A stretch of DNA of 64,000 bases, taken from Bacilli bacterium. Lineage in GTDB: Bacteria; Bacillota_I; Bacilli_A; RFN20; CAG-826. The notes under the pieces were generated by a model. It saw only the letters and a list, made by a program, of their open reading frames with translations, searched no databases and had not been told where the DNA came from. The stretch is from contig JBAZCS010000001.1 of assembly GCA_041654855.1 (NCBI GenBank), positions 985 to 64,984 of the forward strand, in the 5' to 3' direction. How positions within the stretch are numbered: the first letter of the stretch is position 1; every line of letters starts with the position of its first letter. Positions 40,626 through 60,770 of the stretch are shown one piece after another. A program made the translations under genes and the position numbers.

Positions 40626-41013
40626 AACAGTAGCGGCGATTTTAAAGTATGTCGTAGGTTTTCTTATTGCAGCCGGCATCTTTTTCCTTGCTATTGGCAT
40701 GCGCAATATTTATACGGAAACTGACATCCGGCAAATTTATCGCTTTTTAGCGGATGGATTTTCAATTCCTGGAATGCTATATTTAGGTTTAGGCTTTCTT
40801 ATTTGGTTTGCTAACTTAGGCACTTTCCACGGTATTGGTTATAGTTTACGCCATCTTTTTATGATGTTACTCCCTTTTGTGCGGAAAAAACATCAAACAT
40901 ACGCTGATTATGTTGAAGCGCAAAAAACAGTCAGTGGATACGCCTTTTTATTTATTATCGGCGGTGTATTCTTCGCTACTGGTATTGTATTTACAATTTT
41001 ATTCTTTGTTTAA
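40618..41013 (+). CDS. Small membrane protein (DUF3899-like), 131 aa.
   Basis: ATG overlaps the oppF stop (AATGAATAA). Two or three TM segments. Family assignment is tentative. Confidence 0.45.
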   Translation: MNKTVAAILKYVVGFLIAAGIFFLAIGMRNIYTETDIRQIYRFLADGFSIPGMLYLGLGFLIWFANLGTFHGIGYSLRHLFMMLLPFVRKKHQTYADYVEAQKTVSGYAFLFIIGGVFFATGIVFTILFFV

Positions 41014-41023
41014 AATATAAAAA

Positions 41024-41064
41024 AAGCACTTCCTACTTTTTGTAGTATAAGAAGTGCTTTTTAA
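41024..41064. terminator. Bidirectional rho-independent terminator.
   Basis: AAGCACTTC...GAAGTGCTT long hairpin with A-run and T-run flanks. Sits between the DUF3899-like gene (+) and the PgpA-like gene (-). Confidence 0.55.
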
Positions 41065-41749: not shown

Positions 41750-43480
41750 TTAACTTGTTTGTCGCGATGGGAAATTATTTAAGTTTGTCGCCCTTACCCC
41801 CACCGAATTTCCTAGGGTGTTATCAATATAAAAAGTTGAAGGATCAGTGAAGTAATAAACATAACCATTATTATTTGGATAGTCGAGCATATTGTAATAT
41901 GCGCTGCCAGCATACGTACCATCAAACTTTAAAATCGTCCGTTTGGGAACGTAGGTTTCATCCATTAAGTCTTCAAAATTACCGTTAGACATGCGGTAAG
42001 TGTAGTCGACGGCATCAATAAGACCGGCGTCTTCACCACCACTTTCATTAGTGCCGGAAAGCGTTAAATAGAAGAAGCTCGCACTCGTCGCCGCATATTG
42101 ACTTGAGGCGGCCACTAAAAATTCATAACCCGCACTAACCATTGTTTGTGGAATACGGAAGTCAAAATAAACACCAGTCCGGTTACCGACCGCAGCTTTA
42201 CTAATAGAAAAGCGCACTTCATTAAGATTCGTAATTGTTGTCCCATTACGTTTGAATTGATAAACAGAGATTGATTCATTATCGGCACCTTGGTTAAAAC
42301 GGAAGAAGGAAAGGCCACTCGTACCACCTTTTTTCGGCTTAAACCAAATTGAGTTACGGGGAGCGGTCATATTTGTGCCCGCTTCACTTGGGAGCGTTAC
42401 ACTATTACTCCATGTATTATTCGTGTTTCTTGTCGGCGGGTAAGTTGAAGCTAAAAGCACAGTCCTTGCAGTCCCGAGACTTCGCACTTGTTGATAACGC
42501 GCCCAAAACTCTTCATGGACTAAGGAAGCGTGATTAGCGTCAGTAATCGTTGTAATATTACTAGTCGTCGTTGTAATAACTTGGTTTTGGTTTTCCGCGA
42601 CTTCGACTAATGGATTATATTTAACAAAACTTGAGTTACTTGCATTAACAGAAGAAGTTTGGGTCGTTAAGCTACCCACGTAATAAGCACTGCCAATAAT
42701 GGAATTAGGGACGGCGACGGTGCTTGGGTAGTTGACGTTCGTAAATAAGTGACCGGGATAGTTTGGGTCGACAAGTAAATTACCGGCTACTCCTTGGTCA
42801 GGATTATCGGACCATGTAATATAAGGACCTAGCTTACCAATTAATGAATAATCGCTCGTTACTCGAATGGCACTTGGGCCTAAGGAAATCTTTGCATTTT
42901 TAACCCCAATTCCCTTTAATGTTCCGTTAGCGTATCCCGCAACAAGCCCGACATAGCTATTGTTAACTTTGTTTGAAACTTCAAGGTTTTCAAGATAAAA
43001 GTTTTGCGCCAAGCCGATAATTGGTGGTTCATCTTCAGTTGAACCTAAATTACCAAAAAAGCCGATTGAATTACCAACATCTACAATTTCAAAGTGGCTT
43101 GGTTTTTCTTTCCAATCAAGGGGATCACTCGATACCCATAAGTTTTTAAGCGTATAGCCATTACCGTCAAAACTACCAAGAAATGGGGCTTCGTCAGTGC
43201 CAATTGGGGGAATAGCACCGCTATGAATGTCTAGAAAGCCCGTTAATGAGCCTTTCATATCAATATCATTGCCAAGTTCAAAATATGTTTTTTCTGGACA
43301 GGCGCCGCTATTTTGCAGCCAGGAGAAGTTATATAGATGTTTTGGGGTGCGAATAATGTAGGGATCAGCTTCTGTTCCGGTTCCGCTTGCGTAATAGTTA
43401 CTAATTGAACTACCGGTCATTTTTGTGTTAAATTGCAAAACAGTCGTAAACCATGCCATTGTTGTCGTTACTAATGACAA
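41750..43480 (-). CDS. Large secreted/surface protein with a TasA/TapA-like SipW-cognate N-terminal motif (TTMAWFTT). The 5' end is out of frame with its coupled ATG.
   Basis: 576-aa ORF rich in N/T/S/G. MAWFTT parallels TWAAFND of TasA and SAAFHD of TapA. The ORF-track start is a TTG with no RBS. An AGGAG-coupled ATG at 43536-43534 is in another frame (see findings). Confidence 0.55.
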   Translation of the reverse strand: MSLVTTTMAWFTTVLQFNTKMTGSSISNYYASGTGTEADPYIIRTPKHLYNFSWLQNSGACPEKTYFELGNDIDMKGSLTGFLDIHSGAIPPIGTDEAPFLGSFDGNGYTLKNLWVSSDPLDWKEKPSHFEIVDVGNSIGFFGNLGSTEDEPPIIGLAQNFYLENLEVSNKVNNSYVGLVAGYANGTLKGIGVKNAKISLGPSAIRVTSDYSLIGKLGPYITWSDNPDQGVAGNLLVDPNYPGHLFTNVNYPSTVAVPNSIIGSAYYVGSLTTQTSSVNASNSSFVKYNPLVEVAENQNQVITTTTSNITTITDANHASLVHEEFWARYQQVRSLGTARTVLLASTYPPTRNTNNTWSNSVTLPSEAGTNMTAPRNSIWFKPKKGGTSGLSFFRFNQGADNESISVYQFKRNGTTITNLNEVRFSISKAAVGNRTGVYFDFRIPQTMVSAGYEFLVAASSQYAATSASFFYLTLSGTNESGGEDAGLIDAVDYTYRMSNGNFEDLMDETYVPKRTILKFDGTYAGSAYYNMLDYPNNNGYVYYFTDPSTFYIDNTLGNSVGVRATNLNNFPSRQTS

Positions 43481-43537
43481 AAAGGCAAGGGATGTTAGAA
43501 AGCCAAAATATACATTTGTCGTTTTCTTTTTTGCATT

Positions 43538-44257
43538 TTACACTCCTACGTAATACGTAATGTGATCAGCGTACATTACTTCCTTAATTGAATCAGCGCG
43601 AATATCATTTATATAATTCATGACGGGAACGTTATATTCAATAACAAACCACAATTCATTATCACTGTTTGATAAAGTAGTAAGCGGGATTCGTGTTTGT
43701 TTTACAGGATTAGGATTTAAACTAACAAACGAAGTAGTGTTCGCTTTGTTATAAGTTAAAGTGGCGGTTGACCAACCATTTGGTAACGATACAGGGTTAG
43801 CGCTTGTTAATTGAAAAACATTAGATGTAACATTTTCATCATACTCGCCGGCGCCGCTATGTCCGGTATGAAAAGCACCAGCGTTTGTTTTTGCATATAA
43901 GTAAACAGTACTCGTTTCGGTATATGTGAAGGTAATATGCACAACTAAGGCGCGCCGATATTGCGTATATTCAATATCTTGGGGATCAAAACGCGGCATA
44001 CGGACCGCCGGACTATTTTCAAAAGTATAACTATTTGTTGTTGACCCTTCATTAACGACCGTAACGGGGTAAACATTATAGGAATGAATTTGAAAGCCAG
44101 GAGCGGCAATTTCAATTTGGCGGGCAATAATTTGTGCGCGATTATTATTCGTAAACCACGCAAAAGTGGTAATTGTAAAAGAAGAGATCAAACCGATGAG
44201 AATAACGAAATTCAAAATAATAAGCGAAATTTTACGATTAAGAATTTTGTTTTTCAA
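43538..44257 (-). CDS. Secreted protein with a SipW-cognate-like signal peptide (TTFAWFTNNN), TasA/camelysin-like size.
   Basis: 239 aa. TTG start with an AGGAAAGGAAG RBS. N-region KNKILNRK, h-region ISLIILNFVILIGLISSF, then the T-x-A-W-F-T motif. Confidence 0.55.
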   Translation of the reverse strand: MKNKILNRKISLIILNFVILIGLISSFTITTFAWFTNNNRAQIIARQIEIAAPGFQIHSYNVYPVTVVNEGSTTNSYTFENSPAVRMPRFDPQDIEYTQYRRALVVHITFTYTETSTVYLYAKTNAGAFHTGHSGAGEYDENVTSNVFQLTSANPVSLPNGWSTATLTYNKANTTSFVSLNPNPVKQTRIPLTTLSNSDNELWFVIEYNVPVMNYINDIRADSIKEVMYADHITYYVGV

Positions 44258-44477
44258 TGTATTTACTTCCTTTCCTAGAGTGACACTTAGCGGCTAAAAA
44301 AAGAGCCACCACCATTATTTTGGCAGCTGGCTATCTTATCTTTTATAAGACCCTATAGTTTTGCGTCGCTAGATTACTCTAGGTTTGCCTTTACCTTATT
44401 TTTATAAATAATAAATAATTTTTGTCAATATTGAATGCTTTTTTAATGAATTTAGTTAGAAATCAGCGAAAAAGATA

Positions 44478-44510
44478 TAAAAAAAGGCTCCTACTTTCGT
44501 AAGAGACCGA
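44478..44510 (-). terminator. Rho-independent terminator downstream of tRNA-Gly (minus strand).
   Basis: Minus-strand hairpin CTCTTAC-GAAA-GTAGGAG (one G-U pair), then CC and TTTTTTT. Confidence 0.45.
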
Positions 44511-44520
44511 TAAATGCCAA

Positions 44521-44594
44521 TGGAGCAGGTGACGGGAATCGAACCCGCGTATCTACCTTGGCAAGGTAGTGTTCTACCATTGAACTACACCTGC
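44521..44594 (-). tRNA. tRNA-Gly (anticodon GCC), CCA encoded.
   Basis: Reverse complement: GCAGGTG acceptor. GTTC/GAAC D-stem. Anticodon stem CTACC/GGTAG with loop TTGCCAA. T-arm GCGGG-TTCGATT-CCCGT. Discriminator T then CCA. Confidence 0.85.
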
Positions 44595-44717
44595 GTGCTG
44601 CCAATTATAATAACACTACTTTTATATAATTGCAATAAATGTTCTTTTATTTTCTATTTTTTCTGTTTAAAACGTAGTTTTATGGTATATTTAATATTGA
44701 TTAGTGAGGTATTTATC

Positions 44718-46385
44718 ATGCGTGAAAAACTTGCAAACTTAATCTTCCCGGAGATTAATAAAACAATTAAAGATTTAGAAAAAGAATATCCAAAAAGAAA
44801 ATTAATAGAAGGTGCGGAAGTAACGCGCTTTGCCCCGTCCCCTACGGGTTTTTTACACACCGGTAGTTTATTTACCGCCCTTGTGGCAAAGACTGTCGCT
44901 AACCAAAGTAAAGGAATTTTTTTTGTTCGCCTTGAAGATACTGATACGAAACGGGAAATTGCAGGAGCAGGGGAAACCTTACTAAAAGAGATGAACCTTT
45001 TTGATGTATTTCCTGACGAAGGTTATATGGGAGAAAAGGAAGAAGGGGTATATGGTCCTTATAAACAAAGTGAACGAGCGGCTATTTATAAAACAGTCAT
45101 TAAAGAAATGATTAAAGATGACTTAGCCTATCCTTGCTTTTGTACGAATCACGATTTAAGTGCCTTACGGGCGACCCAAGAAGCAAATAAAGTAGTGCCG
45201 GGATATTACGGTGCTTACGCGCGATGTAGTTTTTTAAGTGCGGAAGAAGCAATTAATAGAATTAATAATGGTGAAAATTATGTTTTACGTTTTCGTAGTA
45301 AAGGTAATCATGAGAATAAAATTAGTTTTAATGACGTTATTAAAGGCACGATTGAAATTGCCGAAAATGATCAACATATCGTTATTTTAAAAAGTGATGG
45401 CTTACCAACTTATCACTTCGCTCACCTTTGTGACGATCATTTCATGCATACGACACTTGTTACGCGTGGTGAAGAATGGATCAGCAGCGTTCCACTTCAT
45501 TTAGAACTCTTTAAAGCGCTTAAATTTAACACCCCGCGTTATGCGCATTTGCCCGTAATTAATAAACTTGATAACGGTAATAAACGCAAACTTAGTAAAA
45601 GAAAAGACCCCGAAGCCGCGGTTACTTATTTCCTAAACCTTGGTTATCCTATTAAAGCAATCCTTACTTATTTAATGAGTATCGCGAATAGTAATTTTGA
45701 AGAATGGTGGGCGGAAAATAAAAAAGCCCCACTTTCAGATTTTAACTTTAACTTATCACGGATGAGTGTTGATGGCGCGCTTTTTGATTTAGAGAAAGTA
45801 AATTTCTTTGCCCGTGAATATATTGCTTCCCTTACCGCCCTTGAAGTAAGTAAAGAATACATTGACTATTTAAAGTTTACCGGTGATAAAGCATTACTTA
45901 AACGTATTGAAAATGACTATGAACGGTTTACAAAAATTATGAATATTGAGCGGGAAAGCATTAAACCACGTAAAGACTACAGTCATTATGCGATGGTTTA
46001 TGACACCATTAAGTTTTTCTATAATGATGAATTTGAAAAGATAATTAATGAAGATAAAATTGAACCATTTAATGAAACATTAAATAAGGAAACAATCATT
46101 GCGTTATTAATCGCTTTACAAACTGATCTTAAATATGGCGAAGGTAATGAAGTGTGGTTTAATTCGCTTAAAGAAATAGCGACTAAAAATGGTTTCGCCC
46201 TGAATAATAAGCAATTTAAGAGTGATCCCGCGTCTTTTAAAGGGGTAGTCGCTGATGTTGCCGAAGTATTACGTATTAGTGTAGTCGGTGCGAAAAAAAG
46301 CCCAAATCTTTATGAAGTATTAACAATTTTAGGAAAAGAAGAAGTAAATCGGCGCCTAAATATAATAATGTTAAAGATAAAATAA
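44718..46385 (+). CDS. gltX: Glutamyl-tRNA synthetase (class I), atypical: HTGS in place of HIGH, ~35-aa N-terminal extension, 555 aa.
   Basis: RFAPSPTGFLHTGSL...FFVRLEDTDTKRE. KMSKS present as KLSKRK. C-terminal anticodon-binding block VVGAKKSPNLYEVLTILGKEEVNRRL. AGTGAGGT RBS before ATG 44718. The ORF-track start overlapping the tRNA is an artefact. Confidence 0.75.
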   Translation: MREKLANLIFPEINKTIKDLEKEYPKRKLIEGAEVTRFAPSPTGFLHTGSLFTALVAKTVANQSKGIFFVRLEDTDTKREIAGAGETLLKEMNLFDVFPDEGYMGEKEEGVYGPYKQSERAAIYKTVIKEMIKDDLAYPCFCTNHDLSALRATQEANKVVPGYYGAYARCSFLSAEEAINRINNGENYVLRFRSKGNHENKISFNDVIKGTIEIAENDQHIVILKSDGLPTYHFAHLCDDHFMHTTLVTRGEEWISSVPLHLELFKALKFNTPRYAHLPVINKLDNGNKRKLSKRKDPEAAVTYFLNLGYPIKAILTYLMSIANSNFEEWWAENKKAPLSDFNFNLSRMSVDGALFDLEKVNFFAREYIASLTALEVSKEYIDYLKFTGDKALLKRIENDYERFTKIMNIERESIKPRKDYSHYAMVYDTIKFFYNDEFEKIINEDKIEPFNETLNKETIIALLIALQTDLKYGEGNEVWFNSLKEIATKNGFALNNKQFKSDPASFKGVVADVAEVLRISVVGAKKSPNLYEVLTILGKEEVNRRLNIIMLKIK

Positions 46386-50998: not shown

Positions 50999-51572
50999 TA
51001 ATGCGCTTAGCGTATTTTTCATATACTTCTAGTGTTATATCACGAATACTTTGATGTTCGCTATCAATCGTATAATCAATGCCTTCAATGTTCCGTGGAT
51101 TAAATTTCGCGTCATCAATAATAATCCGTTCTAAGGCTACACTTGGATTATCACCACGCGCAATCATCCGTTTTTGGCGAATACTGCGACTTGCCTGCAT
51201 AAAGAAGACAACGATTTCATTATCTTTAAGTGCCTTAATTGGTTTTAAGCCATTTGGTTCAATAATAAGTACTTTATTCGTATCAATCTCAGCTTTTGAA
51301 GTTCCGTAAAAGTTTTCATTATATTCGACAGTTTCCACGAAATGACCATTTTGCTCAAGTTTTAAAAATTCTTCTTTGCTCACAAAATGATAATCAACGC
51401 CATTTTGTTCGCCAGGGCGCATATTTCTTGTCGTATGGGTAACGACTTTTTTCATCGCAAAAATTTTACCAAGCATTTTGGCGACTTCAGTTTTACCACT
51501 GGCACTTGCCCCCATTAATACAATCATATATAAATGATAGACTAAAACCGTTTTAATTGCACGACACAACAT
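50976..51572 (-). CDS. Guanylate kinase-family protein.
   Basis: P-loop GASASGKT. TTR.MRPGEQNGVDYHFVSKEEF...NFYGTS guanylate-kinase motifs. The true start is probably the internal M (MIVLMGAS, 51527). Confidence 0.65.
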   Translation of the reverse strand: MLCRAIKTVLVYHLYMIVLMGASASGKTEVAKMLGKIFAMKKVVTHTTRNMRPGEQNGVDYHFVSKEEFLKLEQNGHFVETVEYNENFYGTSKAEIDTNKVLIIEPNGLKPIKALKDNEIVVFFMQASRSIRQKRMIARGDNPSVALERIIIDDAKFNPRNIEGIDYTIDSEHQSIRDITLEVYEKYAKRIISLEENR

Positions 51573-51613
51573 TTTTTTGTGAGAAAAATTTAAGGTTGTT
51601 GGTATTTATAATT

Positions 51614-52600
51614 ATGAAACTCTTAAAAACGATGTTATTCATGCTTTTTTTAACGCAAATTATTCCGCCCCAGGAATACGCTGCCCCAATCAGTGGCATT
51701 TTACCTTATACGCAGTATCCCAAAGACGTTACTAAGCCGGTAATGGTCTCTTTTGTCTATCATACAACAACTGAGATGACGCTTGAATATGAGTTTTACG
51801 TAAAAAACCCAGAGGGTAAGGTTGTTTTTAATCGGCCGAAACGGCAAATATATTTAGGAAATAATACCGAACTACCGATTTATTATTATTCTTATTCTGG
51901 AGCGACGGGGGTGGGCCGTAATTCTTTAGTGTTTTTACATCGTCCGCTTGGAGAAACAACGTATAAAATCCATACCATATATTTTTATGGCTTTCGCCCC
52001 GGTGTCGAAGTTGATTTAAATGATAAGGTTGATCGTGACACTAAGTTTAGTGAAGAAACAGTTTACGAATATTTTGGCTACACTGCCGGGACCGCCCGTT
52101 TTATTAAAACATCAATGTATAGTAGTGGGCTTATTGAAGAATTAGAGTTGAATCACGATTTATTTCTTAATTTAGATAATCTTTTTCTAAGAACTAACGC
52201 GAAGTATGAAAACGGTGATCAATTGTTTGATGACGCCCGTCTTTATATTAGTGATAAAACATTATACCCGTATCATCTGCATAGTTATGATGGGGAAGCG
52301 GTGCTCCATATTAAACTTATTAAAAATGATTATATTATTTCTTTACATCCCAAAACAATTGTTTATTACGACCCAATTACTCATTTAACGTGTATGGCTT
52401 ATAAAAAAGGGTTTTTACAATCAACAAAATATTTATTTCCAAAAGGACGGAAAGATGATGTTGAAGCAGCGAGTTTTCGTTTGGAAATAAAAGGGCTCGG
52501 TTTTAATAAGTTTAACGCAACCTTTCGCTTTAACGTTAAAATCGCTGATGTCTTTGTTGGCGAAGATGGGTATCACGAAGTAAGGATTGAACGTAATTAA
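51614..52600 (+). CDS. Hypothetical secreted protein (signal peptide), first gene of the Tad-like cluster.
   Basis: MKLLKTMLFMLFLTQIIPPQEYAAP signal-like N-terminus. Y/F-rich, beta-rich composition. 328 aa. Confidence 0.5.
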   Translation: MKLLKTMLFMLFLTQIIPPQEYAAPISGILPYTQYPKDVTKPVMVSFVYHTTTEMTLEYEFYVKNPEGKVVFNRPKRQIYLGNNTELPIYYYSYSGATGVGRNSLVFLHRPLGETTYKIHTIYFYGFRPGVEVDLNDKVDRDTKFSEETVYEYFGYTAGTARFIKTSMYSSGLIEELELNHDLFLNLDNLFLRTNAKYENGDQLFDDARLYISDKTLYPYHLHSYDGEAVLHIKLIKNDYIISLHPKTIVYYDPITHLTCMAYKKGFLQSTKYLFPKGRKDDVEAASFRLEIKGLGFNKFNATFRFNVKIADVFVGEDGYHEVRIERN

Positions 52601-52601
52601 T

Positions 52602-52973
52602 ATGTGGTGGAAATTAGCGTTTGTTTTTCTTTTTCTTTTTAGCGCTCAGTTTACAACTAGTGTACGTTTTAGTCATGTTAATGAAGTGTTTAATAGTATT
52701 ACGCATGATTATGTTTATCACGCCATCACCTTTAGTGAACAAAGCGAAGAAGCATATTTTAATGAAACAACGGTAAACACGATTATTGATGAACATTTCA
52801 CTAATAACTTAAAAGTCAAAAATTACGAGCATAAGATTACTTTTTACCGTAATGGACGGATTAAAAAAATTGGTGAAAGGAGTAATGAGTTTCATATAAA
52901 CCTAAAGGCTAATCTCGGCTTTAATGTGTTTTATGAGAAAACATTTAAATACTATGTCACACGCAATCGATAA
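52602..52973 (+). CDS. Small hypothetical protein with an N-terminal signal/TM segment.
   Basis: MWWKLAFVFLFLFSAQF hydrophobic N-terminus. 123 aa. Overlaps the start of the downstream ATPase gene. Confidence 0.4.
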   Translation: MWWKLAFVFLFLFSAQFTTSVRFSHVNEVFNSITHDYVYHAITFSEQSEEAYFNETTVNTIIDEHFTNNLKVKNYEHKITFYRNGRIKKIGERSNEFHINLKANLGFNVFYEKTFKYYVTRNR

Positions 52974-53892
52974 TGTTATTAGTATTATTGAAACTAGTTT
53001 CCTAAAAGATTTATTAAGTGATGAATCAATTACGGATATTAGTTATAACGGGCAAAATCTTTACTTTTTCTCAAGTAAAAGCGGGCGCGCCTTTTATAAA
53101 AGCATTGATAATAGCCAAGTTTTAACGTTTCTGCGCAATATCGCCAATTACGCGAATGTCCGTTTTTCTTATAGTGATACTTTCTTAGATATCTCTGTTG
53201 GTAAATATCGCTTAAGCGCAATGCATTATGCGCTTAGTCGCTTTGGTTATAAAGAAAGCTTAAGCTTTGCCTTACGCATTAATCATAACTTTTTAGCGCG
53301 TAATCCGCATTATCTTGGCGAAAAGTTAGGCGCCATTTTACAAGATATTATGAGTAAAAAAAGATCGATTATTATAAGTGGAACGACGGGTGTTGGAAAA
53401 ACAACATTACAAAAGTATTTATTAATGTTATTACCACCGAATACGCGTGTATTAGTCATTGATAATGTATTAGAGTTAGGTGAAGTTCACACTTTAAATG
53501 AAACGTTAGATATAACACTTTGGCAAACGAAAGATAATAAAGAAGAAGCGATTCGTGAATATGTGCAAAGGGCGCTACGCTTTCATCCTGATTATTTAAT
53601 TATTGCCGAAAGTCGCGGTCACGAGATGAAAGAAATATTACAAGGAGCGATAAGTGGTCATCCTAACATTGTTACCTTACACGCTGATAGTGCCGAAATC
53701 GCTTATGACCGTGTGTTGTATTTAAGTGGCTCGCCCAATAAAGATGCCTTATACCATGCTTATCCTTATGTTATTCATCTTGCGAAGAAGGAAGACAATA
53801 AAGGACAAGTAAAAAGATATATTGAAAGAATAACGGCCTATGACGTTAAAACGAAAAAGATTAAAGTAATCTACTGTGAGGATAAAGAATGA
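52954..53892 (+). CDS. Secretion/pilus-assembly ATPase of the VirB11/CpaF(TadA)/archaeal FlaI clade, minimal length (312 aa).
   Basis: Walker A ISGTTGVGKTT. Asp-box-like PDYLIIAESRG. His-box TLHADSA. No large N-terminal domain. Confidence 0.7.
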   Translation: MSHAIDNVISIIETSFLKDLLSDESITDISYNGQNLYFFSSKSGRAFYKSIDNSQVLTFLRNIANYANVRFSYSDTFLDISVGKYRLSAMHYALSRFGYKESLSFALRINHNFLARNPHYLGEKLGAILQDIMSKKRSIIISGTTGVGKTTLQKYLLMLLPPNTRVLVIDNVLELGEVHTLNETLDITLWQTKDNKEEAIREYVQRALRFHPDYLIIAESRGHEMKEILQGAISGHPNIVTLHADSAEIAYDRVLYLSGSPNKDALYHAYPYVIHLAKKEDNKGQVKRYIERITAYDVKTKKIKVIYCEDKE

Positions 53893-54581
53893 CCCTAGTT
53901 ATCATCTTCCCCCTCTTACTTGTTATATTAATTGGCACATATTCTTATCTTGTTCTTGGTAGTGTTTTCTATTTAATGATAAATAGTGCAATCACCTTAC
54001 TATTTGCGATATATTTAGCGATTCGTCTATATTATTATCAAAATCTTATTGCCCGTAAACGCTTTATGTTTTCGTTCATTGAACTTTTTATTTTAAATTT
54101 TGATGTGCAAAAAAGTATTGAAGCAACGATGGCCATTATTTTCCCCTTATTTAGCGCAACCGAGCAAAAAACATTGAATCGCTTGCAAAAAGGCGATGGA
54201 TTGAGTCTTGTTGAGCAGTTAAAGTTATATTTTAATGATTATTATTATGAATCATTTTTTGATATGTTAATGGTGGTCGTTGATCGTGGGGGCTCTTTTA
54301 TTAAGGTGAGTGAAGTGCTTTTATACACCATATCGGATAGTGAAGCGCAGCTTATTAAATTAAACCGCATTGACAATACTTATTTAATTAAGTTTGTCTT
54401 TAACTGGCTTTTTATTATGGCCGTTGCTGTTATCTTTCGTTTTGCCTTAAACGATACGATAAACCTTAATAATTTAGACTTAACGTATTTAGTAGGTAAT
54501 GAAATATTTATGGGTACCTTTTTACTAAGTTTAACGTTACTTATTGAAAATAGATTACGGAGGAGTAAAAATGTCACTTAA
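53889..54581 (+). CDS. Polytopic membrane protein, TadB/TadC-like (single T2SS-F-like domain).
   Basis: Directly follows the ATPase with an ATGA overlap. N- and C-terminal TM helices flank a soluble helical region. 230 aa. Confidence 0.45.
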   Translation: MTLVIIFPLLLVILIGTYSYLVLGSVFYLMINSAITLLFAIYLAIRLYYYQNLIARKRFMFSFIELFILNFDVQKSIEATMAIIFPLFSATEQKTLNRLQKGDGLSLVEQLKLYFNDYYYESFFDMLMVVVDRGGSFIKVSEVLLYTISDSEAQLIKLNRIDNTYLIKFVFNWLFIMAVAVIFRFALNDTINLNNLDLTYLVGNEIFMGTFLLSLTLLIENRLRRSKNVT

Positions 54582-55170
54582 GAAATTATTAAAAGCGTTA
54601 GCACTACTTTGTATTATAAGTGGATTAGCGCTTATTTTTTGGCTCCGAAATTATTTAATATATGGAATGTTAATTGTTGTGGGCATAGGCTTATATTATT
54701 TTTCGACAAAAAAAGATGAAACAAAAGATAACTTAAATATCGCTAATTTTATTAATGTTTTTACGCATTTTCGGGTCGCTCTTGATAGTGATGCGAATGT
54801 CTTTAATGCTTTAAGCGCTAGTTTAGAGTTAACAAGCGGACGGATGCATGAAGAATTAGAGCGGCTTATTAGCGCCATTAATAAAGATCATAGTGTCACC
54901 CCCTTTATTACTTTTGCAAAAAAATATAATCACCGCTTTGTTACCCACATCATGATTAATATTTATATGCTTATTAATCACGGTCTTGATCCGAAAAGAC
55001 TTTGGCAATTTAACTATTTATTTGAAACATTACTGAAAGAATATAACGACGCTGAAATAAGCAAGCATCAAAATAGTTATGACCGCTTTGATTTAAGCCT
55101 CTTTCTCGGTAGTGGCATTATGATGTTTACGATTATGGGCAGCATTCTTTCGCTTTTAGGAGGAGCGTAA
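54571..55170 (+). CDS. Polytopic membrane protein, TadC-like (single T2SS-F-like domain).
   Basis: FTHFRVALDSDANVFNALSASLELTSG resembles the GspF-family conserved helix. TM helices at both ends. 199 aa. Confidence 0.45.
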   Translation: MSLKKLLKALALLCIISGLALIFWLRNYLIYGMLIVVGIGLYYFSTKKDETKDNLNIANFINVFTHFRVALDSDANVFNALSASLELTSGRMHEELERLISAINKDHSVTPFITFAKKYNHRFVTHIMINIYMLINHGLDPKRLWQFNYLFETLLKEYNDAEISKHQNSYDRFDLSLFLGSGIMMFTIMGSILSLLGGA

Positions 55171-55508
55171 TGAGTAATATATTTGGGTTAATGTATTCTT
55201 TTATCTTAATATTACCGACTATTCTTTTCGGTGTTGATGTAACGCGCATCAGCACTATTCGCACATACTTAGAAGCTCGAGCAACGGTTGTAAGTTACCA
55301 AATAAGTAAAGAAGGGGGCATCAAACAAAGCTTAATCAATAGCTTAGAAGAAGAAGGGATTACGATTGAATGCAGCGGTGAATGCACTTATATAAGTATG
55401 GGGGAAACAATAAGTTTTCGTTTAGTCCGTACGTATACACCGATGATTTTACAAAAGGAAGAAATGGAAGTAAAAGTTACAAGAGTTGTAATCGTCGGTT
55501 ATTTATAA
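55170..55508 (+). CDS. Small N-terminally anchored protein, TadE/pseudopilin-like.
   Basis: 112 aa. N-terminal TM helix followed by a beta-rich domain. Coupled start (ATG overlaps the upstream TAA). Confidence 0.35.
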   Translation: MSNIFGLMYSFILILPTILFGVDVTRISTIRTYLEARATVVSYQISKEGGIKQSLINSLEEEGITIECSGECTYISMGETISFRLVRTYTPMILQKEEMEVKVTRVVIVGYL

Positions 55509-57911: not shown

Positions 57912-58802
57912 ATGTATATCACAGTTAAAGAAGCTGCCGTAAAATGGCGTATATCCGAGCGTAGAGTAAGGATCTTATGCGCACAAGGGAAAATACTAGG
58001 TGCTCACCAGGAAGGAAGAGCTTGGAAAATCCCATATGATGCAATAAAACCTGCTGATGGTCGATACAAAAAGACCAAATCACTTCTTCCTATAATAGAA
58101 GAAAAAGTGGCTTCTTTAAAACTAAGAAGACCTTTAACAGAAAGTGAATTAGAACGATTAAATGAACAATTTTTAACCGACTTTACATATAACTCGAATG
58201 GTATTGAAGGAAATACAATGTCCTTACGGGAAACGGACATGGTTCTTCGGGGCCTTACAATTGCTCATAAGTCATTAAAAGAACACTTGGAAGTAATTGG
58301 GCATAAGGAAGCATTTGATTATATAAAAGAACTTGCAAAAAAAGATGCTGTTCTTTCTGAAAAGATAATTAAGGATATTCACTATTTAGTTTTAGCGGAC
58401 AAAAAAGAAGATCGCGGAATATATCGAAGAATTCCCGTTCTTATTGCTGGAACAATGCACGAGCCGACTAAACCTTATTTAATAGATGGCAAAATAAAAG
58501 AACTATTAACGAAATATAATAAGAGTAATGAAGACACTATTTCTAAAATAGCGCGTTTTCATCTTGAATTTGAATCGATTCACCCATTTATTGATGGAAA
58601 TGGAAGAACTGGTAGATTAATAATGAATTTAGAACTCATGAAAAAAGGCTATCCACCAATAGGAATTAATATCACTGACAAATTAAGATACTACAAGGCC
58701 TTTGATGAATTTCATTTAAAAGGTGATATTTCTGTAATGACCGACATCATCGCAACATATTTAAATCAAAGACTTGATTTTTATTTATCTATTTTGGATT
58801 AG
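57912..58802 (+). CDS. Fic-family protein (AMPylase/adenylyltransferase) with an N-terminal excisionase-type HTH.
   Basis: Fic motif HPFIDGNGRTGR. Upstream inhibitory-helix-like SNGIEGN (S-x-x-x-E-G). N-terminal MYITVKEAAVKWRISERRVRIL HTH. Confidence 0.85.
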   Translation: MYITVKEAAVKWRISERRVRILCAQGKILGAHQEGRAWKIPYDAIKPADGRYKKTKSLLPIIEEKVASLKLRRPLTESELERLNEQFLTDFTYNSNGIEGNTMSLRETDMVLRGLTIAHKSLKEHLEVIGHKEAFDYIKELAKKDAVLSEKIIKDIHYLVLADKKEDRGIYRRIPVLIAGTMHEPTKPYLIDGKIKELLTKYNKSNEDTISKIARFHLEFESIHPFIDGNGRTGRLIMNLELMKKGYPPIGINITDKLRYYKAFDEFHLKGDISVMTDIIATYLNQRLDFYLSILD

Positions 58803-58978
58803 TATTAACTTACAAGAGGTTGCCAGCAAGAAACATCATTTTTCGTTTTCTATATGTCAAATTCAAATAACGTCTAAAATATATGCTGTTTTATATTTAT
58901 AAATGGAAAAAAAGTAATAAATATGTAATTATATTAATACTTGTTTTTTATTGCACTTAATGAGAGGGGGGACTTATT

Positions 58979-59956
58979 ATGGAGCGAGTAAAGGCGTTAC
59001 AGAAAAAATATAAAATCGATCTTTTATATGACGTTTTCTTAAGGGAGAGTGATTCACTTTTCTTTATCATTGAAGGCGTTAAAGATACGACAACGAAACC
59101 TTTAATACCCCTTTTTGGTGACTGCTCACTTTTTAACATTAGTTGCGATGCGACGACTTTAGAAGATATTATTAGTAAAATCGACCAAAAAAGTGAAATA
59201 TGTGATATTTTAGGCTTTAAAGAATATGTTACGGAATTAAAACGCGAATTAGACGCTGATCAAACAAAAACGGTGTTATATTTTCCGCTTGTTATTGATG
59301 GCGTTAAACATTATTTAGAATTGAAAGCCTTTAAATTCTTTGAACAAGGAGTAACGATTATTTTATTTAACCCCGTTGACCTTAAAAAAGTCAATTTAGA
59401 AATGCTTTATTTTGAATCATATAAAGATAGCTTAACTGGTTTATTTAATTACAACACCCTATTATTACATTTAAGTAAAGCATATGGTGATCATTTCTTT
59501 GGCTTTATTGATTTAGACCATTTTAAATTAATTAACGATACGTATGGTCATAATCGGGGCGATGAAGTTTTAGCACTGGTCGGTAAAAAACTTATAGAAA
59601 TCGCTGATGAACACGTTATTATGTATCGTAAAAGTGGCGATGAATTTATTTTCATGACTATTGATTTAGATAAAGAAAAAACGATGGCACTAGTTAAAAA
59701 GATTCAAGAAGTTATCCGCTCCATCCATTTACCAGCGTTAAAGACTGATTGTTCGATTGGGGTTGTCGAATATAAAGATAATAATGGCCTTTATGATGTT
59801 TATGACGCCATCGCCCTTGCCGATATTGCCATGTATATGTCAAAGAAAAATGGTCGCGGCCAAGTAACACATATTGATGAAGACGAGGTACGAAGTATTG
59901 TCGCTTTTGGTCCGCTAGAAGAAACTTCAGATTCACTCAAGTCTAAAGGTTGCTAA
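58979..59956 (+). CDS. GGDEF-domain protein (diguanylate cyclase family) with SGDEF active-site variant and an uncharacterised N-terminal domain.
   Basis: LTGLFNYNTLL...FIDLDHFKLINDTYGHNRGDEVL...YRKSGDEF. No RxxD I-site upstream of the SGDEF motif. Confidence 0.8.
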   Translation: MERVKALQKKYKIDLLYDVFLRESDSLFFIIEGVKDTTTKPLIPLFGDCSLFNISCDATTLEDIISKIDQKSEICDILGFKEYVTELKRELDADQTKTVLYFPLVIDGVKHYLELKAFKFFEQGVTIILFNPVDLKKVNLEMLYFESYKDSLTGLFNYNTLLLHLSKAYGDHFFGFIDLDHFKLINDTYGHNRGDEVLALVGKKLIEIADEHVIMYRKSGDEFIFMTIDLDKEKTMALVKKIQEVIRSIHLPALKTDCSIGVVEYKDNNGLYDVYDAIALADIAMYMSKKNGRGQVTHIDEDEVRSIVAFGPLEETSDSLKSKGC

Positions 59957-59957
59957 T

Positions 59958-60770
59958 ATGGAAATCATTAAATATATTATATTAGGTATCGTGCAAGGAG
60001 TAACGGAAATCTTTCCCGTTAGCTCAAGTGGCCATTTAGTCATCTTTCAAGCACTTTTTGGGCTTGAACAACCAGGTTTAGTGTTCGAAATGTTTACAAA
60101 CATGGCGTCTTTTCTCGCTTTATTTGTTCTTTTCGCCGAGGATATCATAAAGTTAATCAAAGGCTTTTTCCTATACATTTTCACGAAAAACAAAGAAGAG
60201 CATAAAGACACTTTTCTTTATGTCATTAAGCTTTTAGTCGCGGTCATCCCGCTTGGGATTGTCGGCTTTATTTTTAAAGATCATATGGGACAAATTAAAA
60301 ACCTTTTAACAGTAGGGATTGCTCTTTTTATTACGGGTGCTCTTTTACTTACAATCTTTTTTACCCGTAATAAGATAGAAGATCATGATGATATTACCTT
60401 TAAAGACGCATTAGCAATTGGCTTTACGCAAGCGTTTGCTGTTTTCCCCGGTATTTCCCGAAGTGGGTCAACGATTATTGGCGGTAGAGCAAGTCGCGTC
60501 TCACTTAAAAGTATTTTAAAGTTTTCCTTTTTAGCCTATATCATTATTAGTGTCCCGACAAGTATTCTCGGTATTTTCGATTTAGCGACGACGAGTGAAA
60601 CGATAAACTGGTGGGGTTATAGTCTTGCCTTTATCTTTACTTTTGGAGCGACATTATTAACCGGCTTTTTAGTGATGCGCAAACTAAAGGTTGAACATTT
60701 AATTTATTTTGGCATTTATTGCCTTGTTGTTGGCGTAATCGCCTTTAGTGCATTTTTTATTATTTCATAA
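59958..60770 (+). CDS. uppP: Undecaprenyl-diphosphatase (BacA/UppP).
   Basis: N-terminal GIVQGVTEIFPVSSSGHL motif. Eight TM segments. PGISRSGSTIIGG motif. Confidence 0.9.
   Translation: MEIIKYIILGIVQGVTEIFPVSSSGHLVIFQALFGLEQPGLVFEMFTNMASFLALFVLFAEDIIKLIKGFFLYIFTKNKEEHKDTFLYVIKLLVAVIPLGIVGFIFKDHMGQIKNLLTVGIALFITGALLLTIFFTRNKIEDHDDITFKDALAIGFTQAFAVFPGISRSGSTIIGGRASRVSLKSILKFSFLAYIIISVPTSILGIFDLATTSETINWWGYSLAFIFTFGATLLTGFLVMRKLKVEHLIYFGIYCLVVGVIAFSAFFIIS

Follow-up and report, generated by a model that had tools for sequence, protein, structure and literature searches.

The DNA considered here, a window of 64 kb (64,000 nt) from contig JBAZCS010000001.1 of a Bacilli bacterium, contains on its minus strand a pair of adjacent genes, termed A and B, which are preceded by a predicted riboswitch for cyclic di-GMP (c-di-GMP) and whose products share a signal segment centred on the residues A|W-F, the bar marking the putative cleavage site. 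An earlier note on this DNA had described two minus-strand open reading frames (ORFs) next to a tRNA-Gly. Both ORFs appear in the ORF list of the window (43538-44257, 239 aa; 41750-43480, 576 aa), and the tRNA is confirmed as tRNA-Gly(GCC). The riboswitch, which that note overlooked, is the most informative feature of the locus. In the direction of transcription, the elements are as follows.

44521-44594, minus strand: tRNA-Gly(GCC), on the same strand as the gene A/gene B pair
44488-44505, minus strand: terminator of the tRNA-Gly, from a terminator scan
44401-44428, minus strand: putative promoter, picked out by eye, with TTGACA (44428-44423), a 16-nt spacer and TATAAA (44406-44401)
44319-44399, minus strand: c-di-GMP-I (GEMM-I) riboswitch aptamer (Rfam RF01051, 63.5 bits, gathering score 35, E-value 4.3e-10)
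44296-44331, minus strand: intrinsic terminator with arms AGCCAGCUGCC-loop-GGUGGUGGCU followed by U7, from RNA folds (terminator scan match 44327-44308)
43538-44257, minus strand: gene A, 239 aa, TTG start, with a predicted signal peptide at residues 1-33 and the site TFA|WF
41750-43535, minus strand: gene B, approximately 595 aa if intact, with an ATG at 43535

The match of the aptamer to RF01051 is full-length (model positions 1-87) and over the gathering threshold, and the element scores 87.6 bits with R1, a purpose-built covariance model (CM) whose 31 training sequences include this riboswitch; binding of c-di-GMP by it is predicted. The promoter-like element is located just upstream, downstream of the tRNA-Gly terminator, and is absent from a consensus promoter scan, its -10 hexamer ending in A. 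RNA folds demonstrate that the 5′ arm of the intrinsic terminator is also the 3′ strand of the second helix of the aptamer, the strand in common being GCCAGCUGCC, and that aptamer and terminator are therefore mutually exclusive. Such a leader appears to be an ON switch, in which c-di-GMP would favour read-through: when the ligand is abundant, the folded aptamer would sequester the terminator 5′ arm, and transcription would continue into genes A and B. The ligand could be supplied by a GGDEF diguanylate cyclase encoded in the window (58979-59956, plus strand, E-value 5.7e-26), the presence of which shows that the organism makes c-di-GMP.

With regard to other genomes, a scan with an alignment of B, using one genome per GTDB species, returned 213 loci, 80 of which were fetched (loci and proteins are denoted by L- and P-numbers, respectively). 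Hosts of the cassette are labelled Tenericutes, Anaeroplasma, Anaeroplasmataceae, Coproplasma, Mollicutes, Bacilli, Erysipelotrichaceae, Eubacteriales, Acutalibacteraceae and Lachnospiraceae. Local hidden Markov model (HMM) searches place gene A (230-330 aa) directly upstream of gene B (580-1520 aa) in most of the 80 loci, with the two genes often overlapping by a few bases and, in some loci, occurring as tandem A-B arrays. The riboswitch recurs with them: in 43 of 86 loci the cassette is closely preceded, on its own strand, by the core motif GCAAA-N8-30-ACGCAAA, and RF01051 or RF03167 scores above threshold in all 21 loci tested (21/21), often as one riboswitch per cassette. The R1 model, derived from 31 cassette riboswitches, detects 64 copies in 47 of 87 sources; 50 of the 64 are situated no more than 400 nt upstream of an HMM-assigned gene, either A (41) or B (9), and several of those remaining precede divergent A-like ORFs. 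The design in which the terminator shares an aptamer strand is found after approximately 20 of 49 related leaders. Whilst c-di-GMP riboswitches are well known, many of the genes that they control are still 'hypothetical', and the A-B cassette represents a recurrent c-di-GMP-I riboswitch target made of two unannotated families. Literature searches returned no description of it, nor any account of genes regulated by c-di-GMP riboswitches in Mollicutes-like hosts (Anaeroplasma, Coproplasma and 'Mollicutes' metagenome-assembled genomes, MAGs).

The T-[FM]-A-W-F-T motif that had been noticed in both proteins is genuine, and lies far beyond chance. Protein A begins MKNKILNRK, followed by ISLIILNFVILIGLI and then SSFTITTFA|WFTNN. 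In an alignment of 87 family A sequences, the layout is a K/R-rich n-region, approximately 20 hydrophobic residues and a polar c-region, often N-G-S or D-x-S, leading to a site with S/T/G/V/A at P-3, a bulky residue at P-2, A/G/S/C at P-1 (87/87), W at P1′ (87/87) and F (73) or L (11) at P2′. Counts for the genome loci take in proteins with a W[FLYMV] dipeptide at residues 16-80, which amount to 73 of 76 distinct A proteins and 70 of 71 distinct B proteins. In A, these have T/S/A/V at P-3 (67/73), A/G at P-1 (71/73), W at P1′ (73/73) and F/Y at P2′ (71/73); in B they have S/T/V/A at P-3 (61/70), A/S/G at P-1 (66/70), W at P1′ (70/70) and F/Y at P2′ (61/70). The hydrophobic run, of 20-24 residues, is placed 22-23 residues after the last K/R. 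Profiles of A and B align only across the signal/AWF segment (23 columns, 81 % probability, E-value 1e-5), and the common element is therefore a processing signal rather than a domain.

This shared motif behaves as a signal peptidase I (SPase I) site, at which a cut behind the small P-1 residue would give a mature protein starting with W-F. In both families an SPase I-type site is combined with an aromatic P2′ residue (F/Y in the 71 A and 61 B proteins counted above), which is a feature of TasA. The LepB enzyme of E. coli cleaves secreted substrates with an aromatic P2′ inefficiently, whilst TasA (…T-W-A|A-F-N-D), which has F at P2′, is processed by the archaeal-like SipW, its block to LepB having been traced to W at P2 (Musik et al., PMC10269814). 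As aromatic residues at P1′/P2′ are poorly handled by LepB, and as TasA is cleaved by SipW, we infer archaeal/SipW-type processing for A and B. A type IV or Tad pilin-like signal was considered and rejected, as there is no G|F-x-x-x-E type motif, and as the Tad-like ATPase cluster of the window is 8 kb off and unlinked to the cassette in other genomes. A second operon led by a c-di-GMP-I riboswitch occurs in L067 (16381-20563) and L050 (13089-15081), and encodes a 277-aa 'G[ST]FTVS' protein together with three proteins of 320-385 aa that have ...G-T-V-A-W-Y... signals; its products have no NCBIfam or Pfam match. Families A and B thus account for only part of the A-W-[FY] signal class.

With regard to the enzyme itself, motif and HMM searches of the 64-kb window detect no SPase I, in keeping with the earlier remark that no SipW-type peptidase is encoded there. 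An archaeal/SipW-type SPase I is, however, present in the cassette operon of ten other loci: L011, L013, L014, L016, L047 and L054, which are clostridial, L020, from one Bacilli MAG, and L089-L091, which are three further contexts sampled from 1137 peptidase homologues. Neighbour clustering reveals the order signal peptidase, GGDEF/EAL or EAL protein, A, B in the first seven of these, and the EAL domains beside the cassette have E-values of 1e-50 to 1e-66. On TIGR02228 (archaeal-type SPase I, cutoff 51.85) nine of the ten peptidases score 65-85 bits and that of L020 scores 46 bits; on the SipW model the same proteins reach 56-81 bits, below the equivalog cutoff. When aligned, all of them retain the Ser and the His. 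In L089-L091, L011, L013, L016 and L020 (e.g. L090 1381-16798) there is a conserved clostridial cluster of approximately 16 kb that ends in A-B and includes two SipW-type peptidases, several GGDEF/EAL proteins and at least three extra AWF-type proteins. In the three sampled contexts (L089-L091) the order is GGDEF, EAL, a 240-aa 'GSFTV' protein, two or three further AWF-type proteins, SPase 1, AAA, DUF2357, SPase 2, GGDEF/EAL, A, B. Its AAA protein is a membrane-anchored, AAA_5-like ATPase, and the extra AWF-type proteins, which match no Pfam or NCBIfam family, have N-termini of the form ...TASFAW[FL]..N..V.A.G..V.A. Possibly, this cluster constitutes an entire assembly system, with the window retaining just its last two genes. 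By guilt of association, the operon linkage supports a SipW-type enzyme as the probable cognate peptidase of the AWF signal.

Protein A matches no Pfam, NCBIfam or PHROG family; a word-seeded search yielded five homologues, and an exhaustive HMMER search 101 cluster representatives of 230-260 aa. Past the putative cleavage site, the 87-sequence alignment retains W-F-x-x-N-x-x-V-x-A-x-G-[MF]-x-V-x-V, such that the mature protein would open with a strand conserved across the family (N-x-x-V-x-A-x-G-x-x-V-x-V; residues approximately 38-50 in A) ahead of an all-beta domain. The AlphaFold2 (AF2) model generated from the same alignment has a predicted local distance difference test score (pLDDT) of 91.2 and a predicted template modelling score (pTM) of 0.78, and comprises an N-terminal helix (residues 2-39), an ill-defined stretch (37-45) and an all-beta domain with one helix. 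Residues 31-50 have a pLDDT of only 52-63, yet are among the best-conserved stretch of the family. Mature A would be a compact all-beta protein of approximately 200 residues, and its N-terminal strand, conserved yet modelled with low confidence, could be used for insertion into a neighbouring molecule. A Foldseek search of the PDB with the model returned nothing at an E-value ≤ 1e-3, the best match being SadB (E-value 3e-3, template modelling (TM) score approximately 0.2), and a search of viral structures (BFVD) gave no match. A phage origin of the cassette was rejected, there being neither PHROG matches nor BFVD fold matches.

The earlier note had assigned both proteins to the SipW-cognate signal class, and had likened the 239-aa protein in size to TasA and camelysin; the profile searches made here do not support such an assignment. 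TIGR04088 matches neither A nor B at an E-value ≤ 1 and only one of the 87 family A members (E-value 0.046), and the Peptidase_M73/TasA model (IPR022121) has no Pfam match in A, B or any of the 87. An alignment of the A profile to TasA by hhalign has a probability of 1.2 % (the TasA sequence having been verified against 8aur and 5of1), and TasA is not among the top 50 Foldseek matches from the PDB, which holds both of these structures. With Pfam, NCBIfam, hhalign and Foldseek all negative, strict TasA homology was rejected and functional analogy kept. As the tests for TasA/camelysin and TIGR04088 are negative, the resemblance to TasA systems is therefore one of mechanism, not of family. Of the TasA-like fibre or matrix module first proposed, what stands is the SPase site with aromatic P1′/P2′ residues and the linkage to SipW-type peptidases in Clostridia; membership of the TasA family and of TIGR04088 does not.

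Protein B is likewise without a Pfam, NCBIfam or PHROG match, and Pfam Glug is not found in the B of the window. There are 57 homologues, which are approximately 595 aa in Tenericutes or Bacilli MAGs; relatives extend from 580 to 1520 aa, with one long B possessing Listeria-Bacteroides repeats. The intact orthologue consists of a signal peptide, MQKRIRQMYILGFLTSLAFLSLVKTTMA|WFTT, a 3n6z/GLUG-type-related domain and a C-terminal region with no known domain. Against PDB 3n6z, a structural-genomics protein annotated as 'putative immunoglobulin A1 protease', the B profile has an E-value of 3e-7, with B residues of approximately 45-135 aligned onto 35-115 of 3n6z (SISNYyASGtGTeaDPYiI..pkHLYNfsWLq..., FDGNG..i.NL), a match that covers only the first 90 or so residues of the domain. 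Distant relatives of B harbour GLUG (Pfam Glug in P0054 and P0061), GH16 or LRR domains. The low-confidence suggestion that the segment GTEADPY...HLYNF recalls surface proteins is thus strengthened by the 3n6z match and by GLUG in the distant relatives. Across lineages, conservation is confined to the N-terminal 235 or so residues, the C-terminal part being variable and mostly domain-less. Mature B would be composed of a conserved 3n6z-related N-terminal domain and a lineage-variable C-terminus, as expected of an adhesin or surface-display protein.

The copy of gene B in the window is altered at its 5′ end. The 576-aa ORF opens MSLVTTTMAWFTT and carries TTMAWFTT, without a basic n-region and with the h-region reduced to a stub; the earlier description of a basic n-region and a long h-region at both N-termini is accurate for A and inaccurate for this ORF, the start of which is cut off. 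The true start is the ATG at 43535, which is 2 nt past the TAA of gene A and has AGGAG before it, and from here the gene reads MQKRKRQMYILAF*, out of frame with the 576-aa ORF. The N-terminus of P0006 (596 aa, 97 % identical to B) is MQKRIRQMYILGFLTSLAFLSLVKTTMAWFTT. Two loci that are 99 % identical to the window and have an intact 596-aa B, L087 and L088, read ATATTTTAGGC at a site where the window and a sibling contig, L001 (99.65 % identical), read ATATTTT-GGC. Relative to L087/L088, the window lacks one A near 43504, a 1-nt deletion that shifts the frame after codon 11 and removes the start codon, the n-region and half of the h-region from the longest ORF of the gene. Gene B is therefore frameshifted in this strain, and its product is probably not exported. 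A programmed -1 frameshift or poly-A slippage at ATGCAAAAAAG was rejected, since the undisrupted orthologue (P0006, L087) stays in the frame set by the ATG, and the window differs simply by a single A missing near 43504; an A-B fusion by stop-codon read-through (same frame, one TAA between) was also rejected, as the orthologues are separate, often 4-nt-overlapping genes. A second 1-nt deletion exists in L001, at window position 42616, with neither indel lying in a long homopolymer, and in several related MAG loci (L004, L007, L008 and L010) A or B is split into two ORFs. Such indels and split genes reflect repeated inactivation of a surface-protein module or, alternatively, errors of assembly.

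On balance, and with moderate confidence, we favour a reading of this locus as a module, induced by c-di-GMP, that exports surface or matrix proteins bearing signals of a SipW-like class. Both products would enter the Sec pathway by way of the K/R-rich n-region, some 20 hydrophobic residues and the polar c-region, ahead of [ST]-x-[AGS] | W-[FY], and would be processed by an archaeal/SipW-type signal peptidase of the kind encoded beside the cassette in Clostridia. Together, A and B would in all likelihood build a structure for surface adhesion or a matrix under induction by c-di-GMP; the cassette is thus best seen as a probable module of this kind that can be switched on, and not as a recognisable TasA homologue. 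Parallels are provided by SipW-dependent BsaA and TasA fibres, which assemble via N-terminal donor strands (PMC7395162, PMC11580942, PMC9674648). Several observations weigh against this reading. No riboswitch is found at the cassette of the close relatives L002, L003 and L005, and most loci have no SipW-type peptidase within 10 kb of the cassette, including all of the close (Tenericutes-like) relatives. The TIGR04088 and TasA/camelysin models are unmatched and there is no fold match to TasA, and the C-terminus of the window B has no recognisable adhesion domain. The translational coupling of A and B suits a stoichiometric complex better than a fibre with a major subunit. B is disrupted both here and in several sibling MAG loci, and the module may be variable or decaying in this clade. 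Finally, the hydrophobic segment is long enough for a membrane anchor, and the AF2 helix is predicted to run unbroken through the motif.

It is from this last point that the main rival, which we consider rather unlikely, is derived: namely that A and B are uncleaved signal-anchor proteins, N-in and single-pass, with A-W-F as an interfacial aromatic motif or a transmembrane contact motif that pairs A with the N-domain of B, and with A as anchor or partner. Anchoring of this type would be an obvious way to hold surface proteins on a wall-less cell, and is consistent with the run of 20-24 residues and its spacing from the last K/R, the continuous modelled helix over A residues 2-39, the tight translational coupling of the genes, the lack of an adjacent SPase in most loci (and in every Tenericutes-like one), and a conservation of B limited to its N-terminal region, as for a docking module. 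Against it, SPase I sites are characterised by just such a strict pattern of small residues at both P-3 and P-1 and by a polar c-region, which here often includes N-G/D; genes for SipW-type SPases share the operon in Clostridia, at times with two in one cluster; and the signal peptides of TasA and CalY are equally long yet cleaved (see also PMC10269814). More improbable still is that A truly belongs to the TasA/BsaA/camelysin family as a very divergent member, forming a donor-strand polymer with B as a TapA-like nucleator, anchor or tip. Sequences of the TasA/BsaA family are indeed highly divergent (PMC11580942). The N-termini are analogous, with x-A|[AYW]-F leading into a conserved strand (W-F-x-x-N-x-x-V-x-A-x-G-x-x-V-x-V in A; A-F-N-D-...-F-A-S-G-T-L-D-L in TasA) that is also the low-confidence part of the A monomer model, and the clostridial clusters offer both the SipW-type SPase and paralogues with the same strand motif, as in multi-paralogue TasA/BsaA operons (PMC11580942). 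Such membership is contradicted by the lack of Peptidase_M73 and TIGR04088 matches, by the hhalign and Foldseek results detailed above, and by B, which has the signal segment in common with A and not the strand motif.

A further alternative, and the one that we find least credible, regards the pair as cargo of a horizontally acquired genomic island at the tRNA-Gly, unrelated to host physiology. In its favour, GC content is slightly raised (0.41 vs approximately 0.36), cassette contexts vary across genomes, and in three close-clade contexts the pair comes straight after a tRNA gene with which it is co-oriented: tRNA-Gly in L002 (9654-10001), tRNA-Asp and tRNA-Phe in L003 (2982-3275), and tRNA-Leu in L005 (9034-9252). 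Amongst the 65 loci with at least 700 nt of upstream sequence, such adjacency occurs in seven, all of the close clade, and is a curiosity rather than evidence for a mobile element. The ORFs flanking the cassette are gltX and pgpA, and a 28-nt terminator-like direct repeat of 75 % identity (44470-44497 and 41012-41039; AAAGTAGGAG..TTTTTTTATA on the minus strand), found right after the tRNA-Gly and right after pgpA, brackets riboswitch-A-B-pgpA; these are probably two similar terminators. The comparison with relatives runs counter to the insertion at tRNA-Gly envisaged in the earlier note: L002, with an A protein of just 60 % identity, retains the order gltX - tRNA-Gly - A - B - pgpA, and L007 (Tenericutes bacterium ADurb.Bin087) retains its upstream part, gltX - tRNA-Gly - A - B. 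No integrase, transposase or repeat of the tRNA 3′ end was found, nor is there any integrase-like ORF between gltX and pgpA, and the GGDEF protein of the host, along with the riboswitch, ties the module to host signalling. As judged from gene order, the pair is syntenic in relatives, and not a recent island.

Within known biology, the closest parallels to the favoured export module are the SipW matrix operons: B. subtilis tapA-sipW-tasA, B. cereus sipW-tasA-calY and C. perfringens sipW-bsaABC. As in these, small beta-rich secreted proteins have a signal ending x-A | aromatic-F and a conserved mature N-terminal strand, several paralogues may occur per locus, a larger accessory secreted protein is present, there is a tie to sessile, biofilm-related signalling and, in the clostridial versions of the cassette, an archaeal-type signal peptidase resides in the operon. 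The differences are that A has no HMM, hhalign or Foldseek similarity to TasA, that the signal is unrecognised by TIGR04088, with an invariant Trp at P1′ and F-x-x-N in place of the F-[ST]-D of the known class, that partner B (600-1500 aa, with a 3n6z/GLUG-related domain) is not TapA-like, and that control is by a c-di-GMP riboswitch, with no SipW gene nearby in the window or in close relatives. In Clostridioides difficile, c-di-GMP riboswitches control surface adhesins and pili, e.g. CD2831, CD3246 and pilA1. The cassette shares with these a leader predicted to sense c-di-GMP, a terminator-based platform and putative surface attachment genes that would be on at high c-di-GMP; whereas the C. 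difficile products have known domains, being type IV pilins or LPXTG adhesins anchored by sortase, those of the cassette lack LPXTG, carry an N-terminal AWF signal and belong to two unannotated families, and many of its hosts are Mollicutes-like lineages. B also resembles BACOVA_03286 (PDB 3n6z) and GLUG-motif (PF07581) surface proteins, in that its residues of approximately 45-135 align and distant relatives carry Pfam Glug, but it has no protease domain, the window B has no Pfam Glug, and the protease label of 3n6z is itself putative.

A broader proposal, which we put forward tentatively, is that Bacillota possess an extracellular assembly system that has gone unrecognised, an 'AWF-signal' system, and that the window carries it in its most reduced form. 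It would act on unannotated secreted proteins with [ST]-x-A|W-[FY], those of the A type also having the conserved mature N-terminal strand. The full clostridial form would include SipW-type peptidases, the membrane-anchored AAA ATPase with its DUF2357 partner, and GGDEF/EAL enzymes, and in Mollicutes-like gut lineages the system would be reduced to riboswitch, A and B. If this is true, A would represent a novel fold serving as fibre or anchor, B would provide a variable adhesive head, and the structure would be the first under c-di-GMP control to be described for wall-less Bacilli. The A|W-F motif and the co-operonic SipW-type peptidases suggest that substrates of archaeal-type SPases are wider than the TIGR04088/TasA class. 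The handles gained are a sequence rule for substrates, a riboswitch for induction and a confident model of a domain without a PDB neighbour, which may be of use in work on surface attachment by wall-less and clostridial commensals of the gut.

Elsewhere in the window, the GGDEF gene is part of a plus-strand group (57912-60770) with a Fic/HTH protein (57912-58802) and a BacA undecaprenyl-diphosphatase (59958-60770), the latter being noteworthy if the lineage is wall-less. The Tad/type-II-secretion-like ATPase (52924-53892, plus strand; PF00437, E-value 1e-18) is the sole Pfam match in a cluster at 51557-55508, where it is preceded by secreted-looking ORFs (51557-52600 and 52587-52973) and followed by polytopic membrane ORFs (53889-54581 and 54544-55170) and a small transmembrane ORF (55170-55508). 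This cluster is syntenic in L002, and could encode a pilus of a divergent Tad or competence-like type. Lastly, the 623-aa glutamyl-tRNA synthetase ORF (44514-46385, plus strand) begins within the antisense of the tRNA-Gly; the real start of gltX is likely the internal MREKLANLIF..., the start of the L007 orthologue being similar, and the long ORF an artefact of ORF calling.

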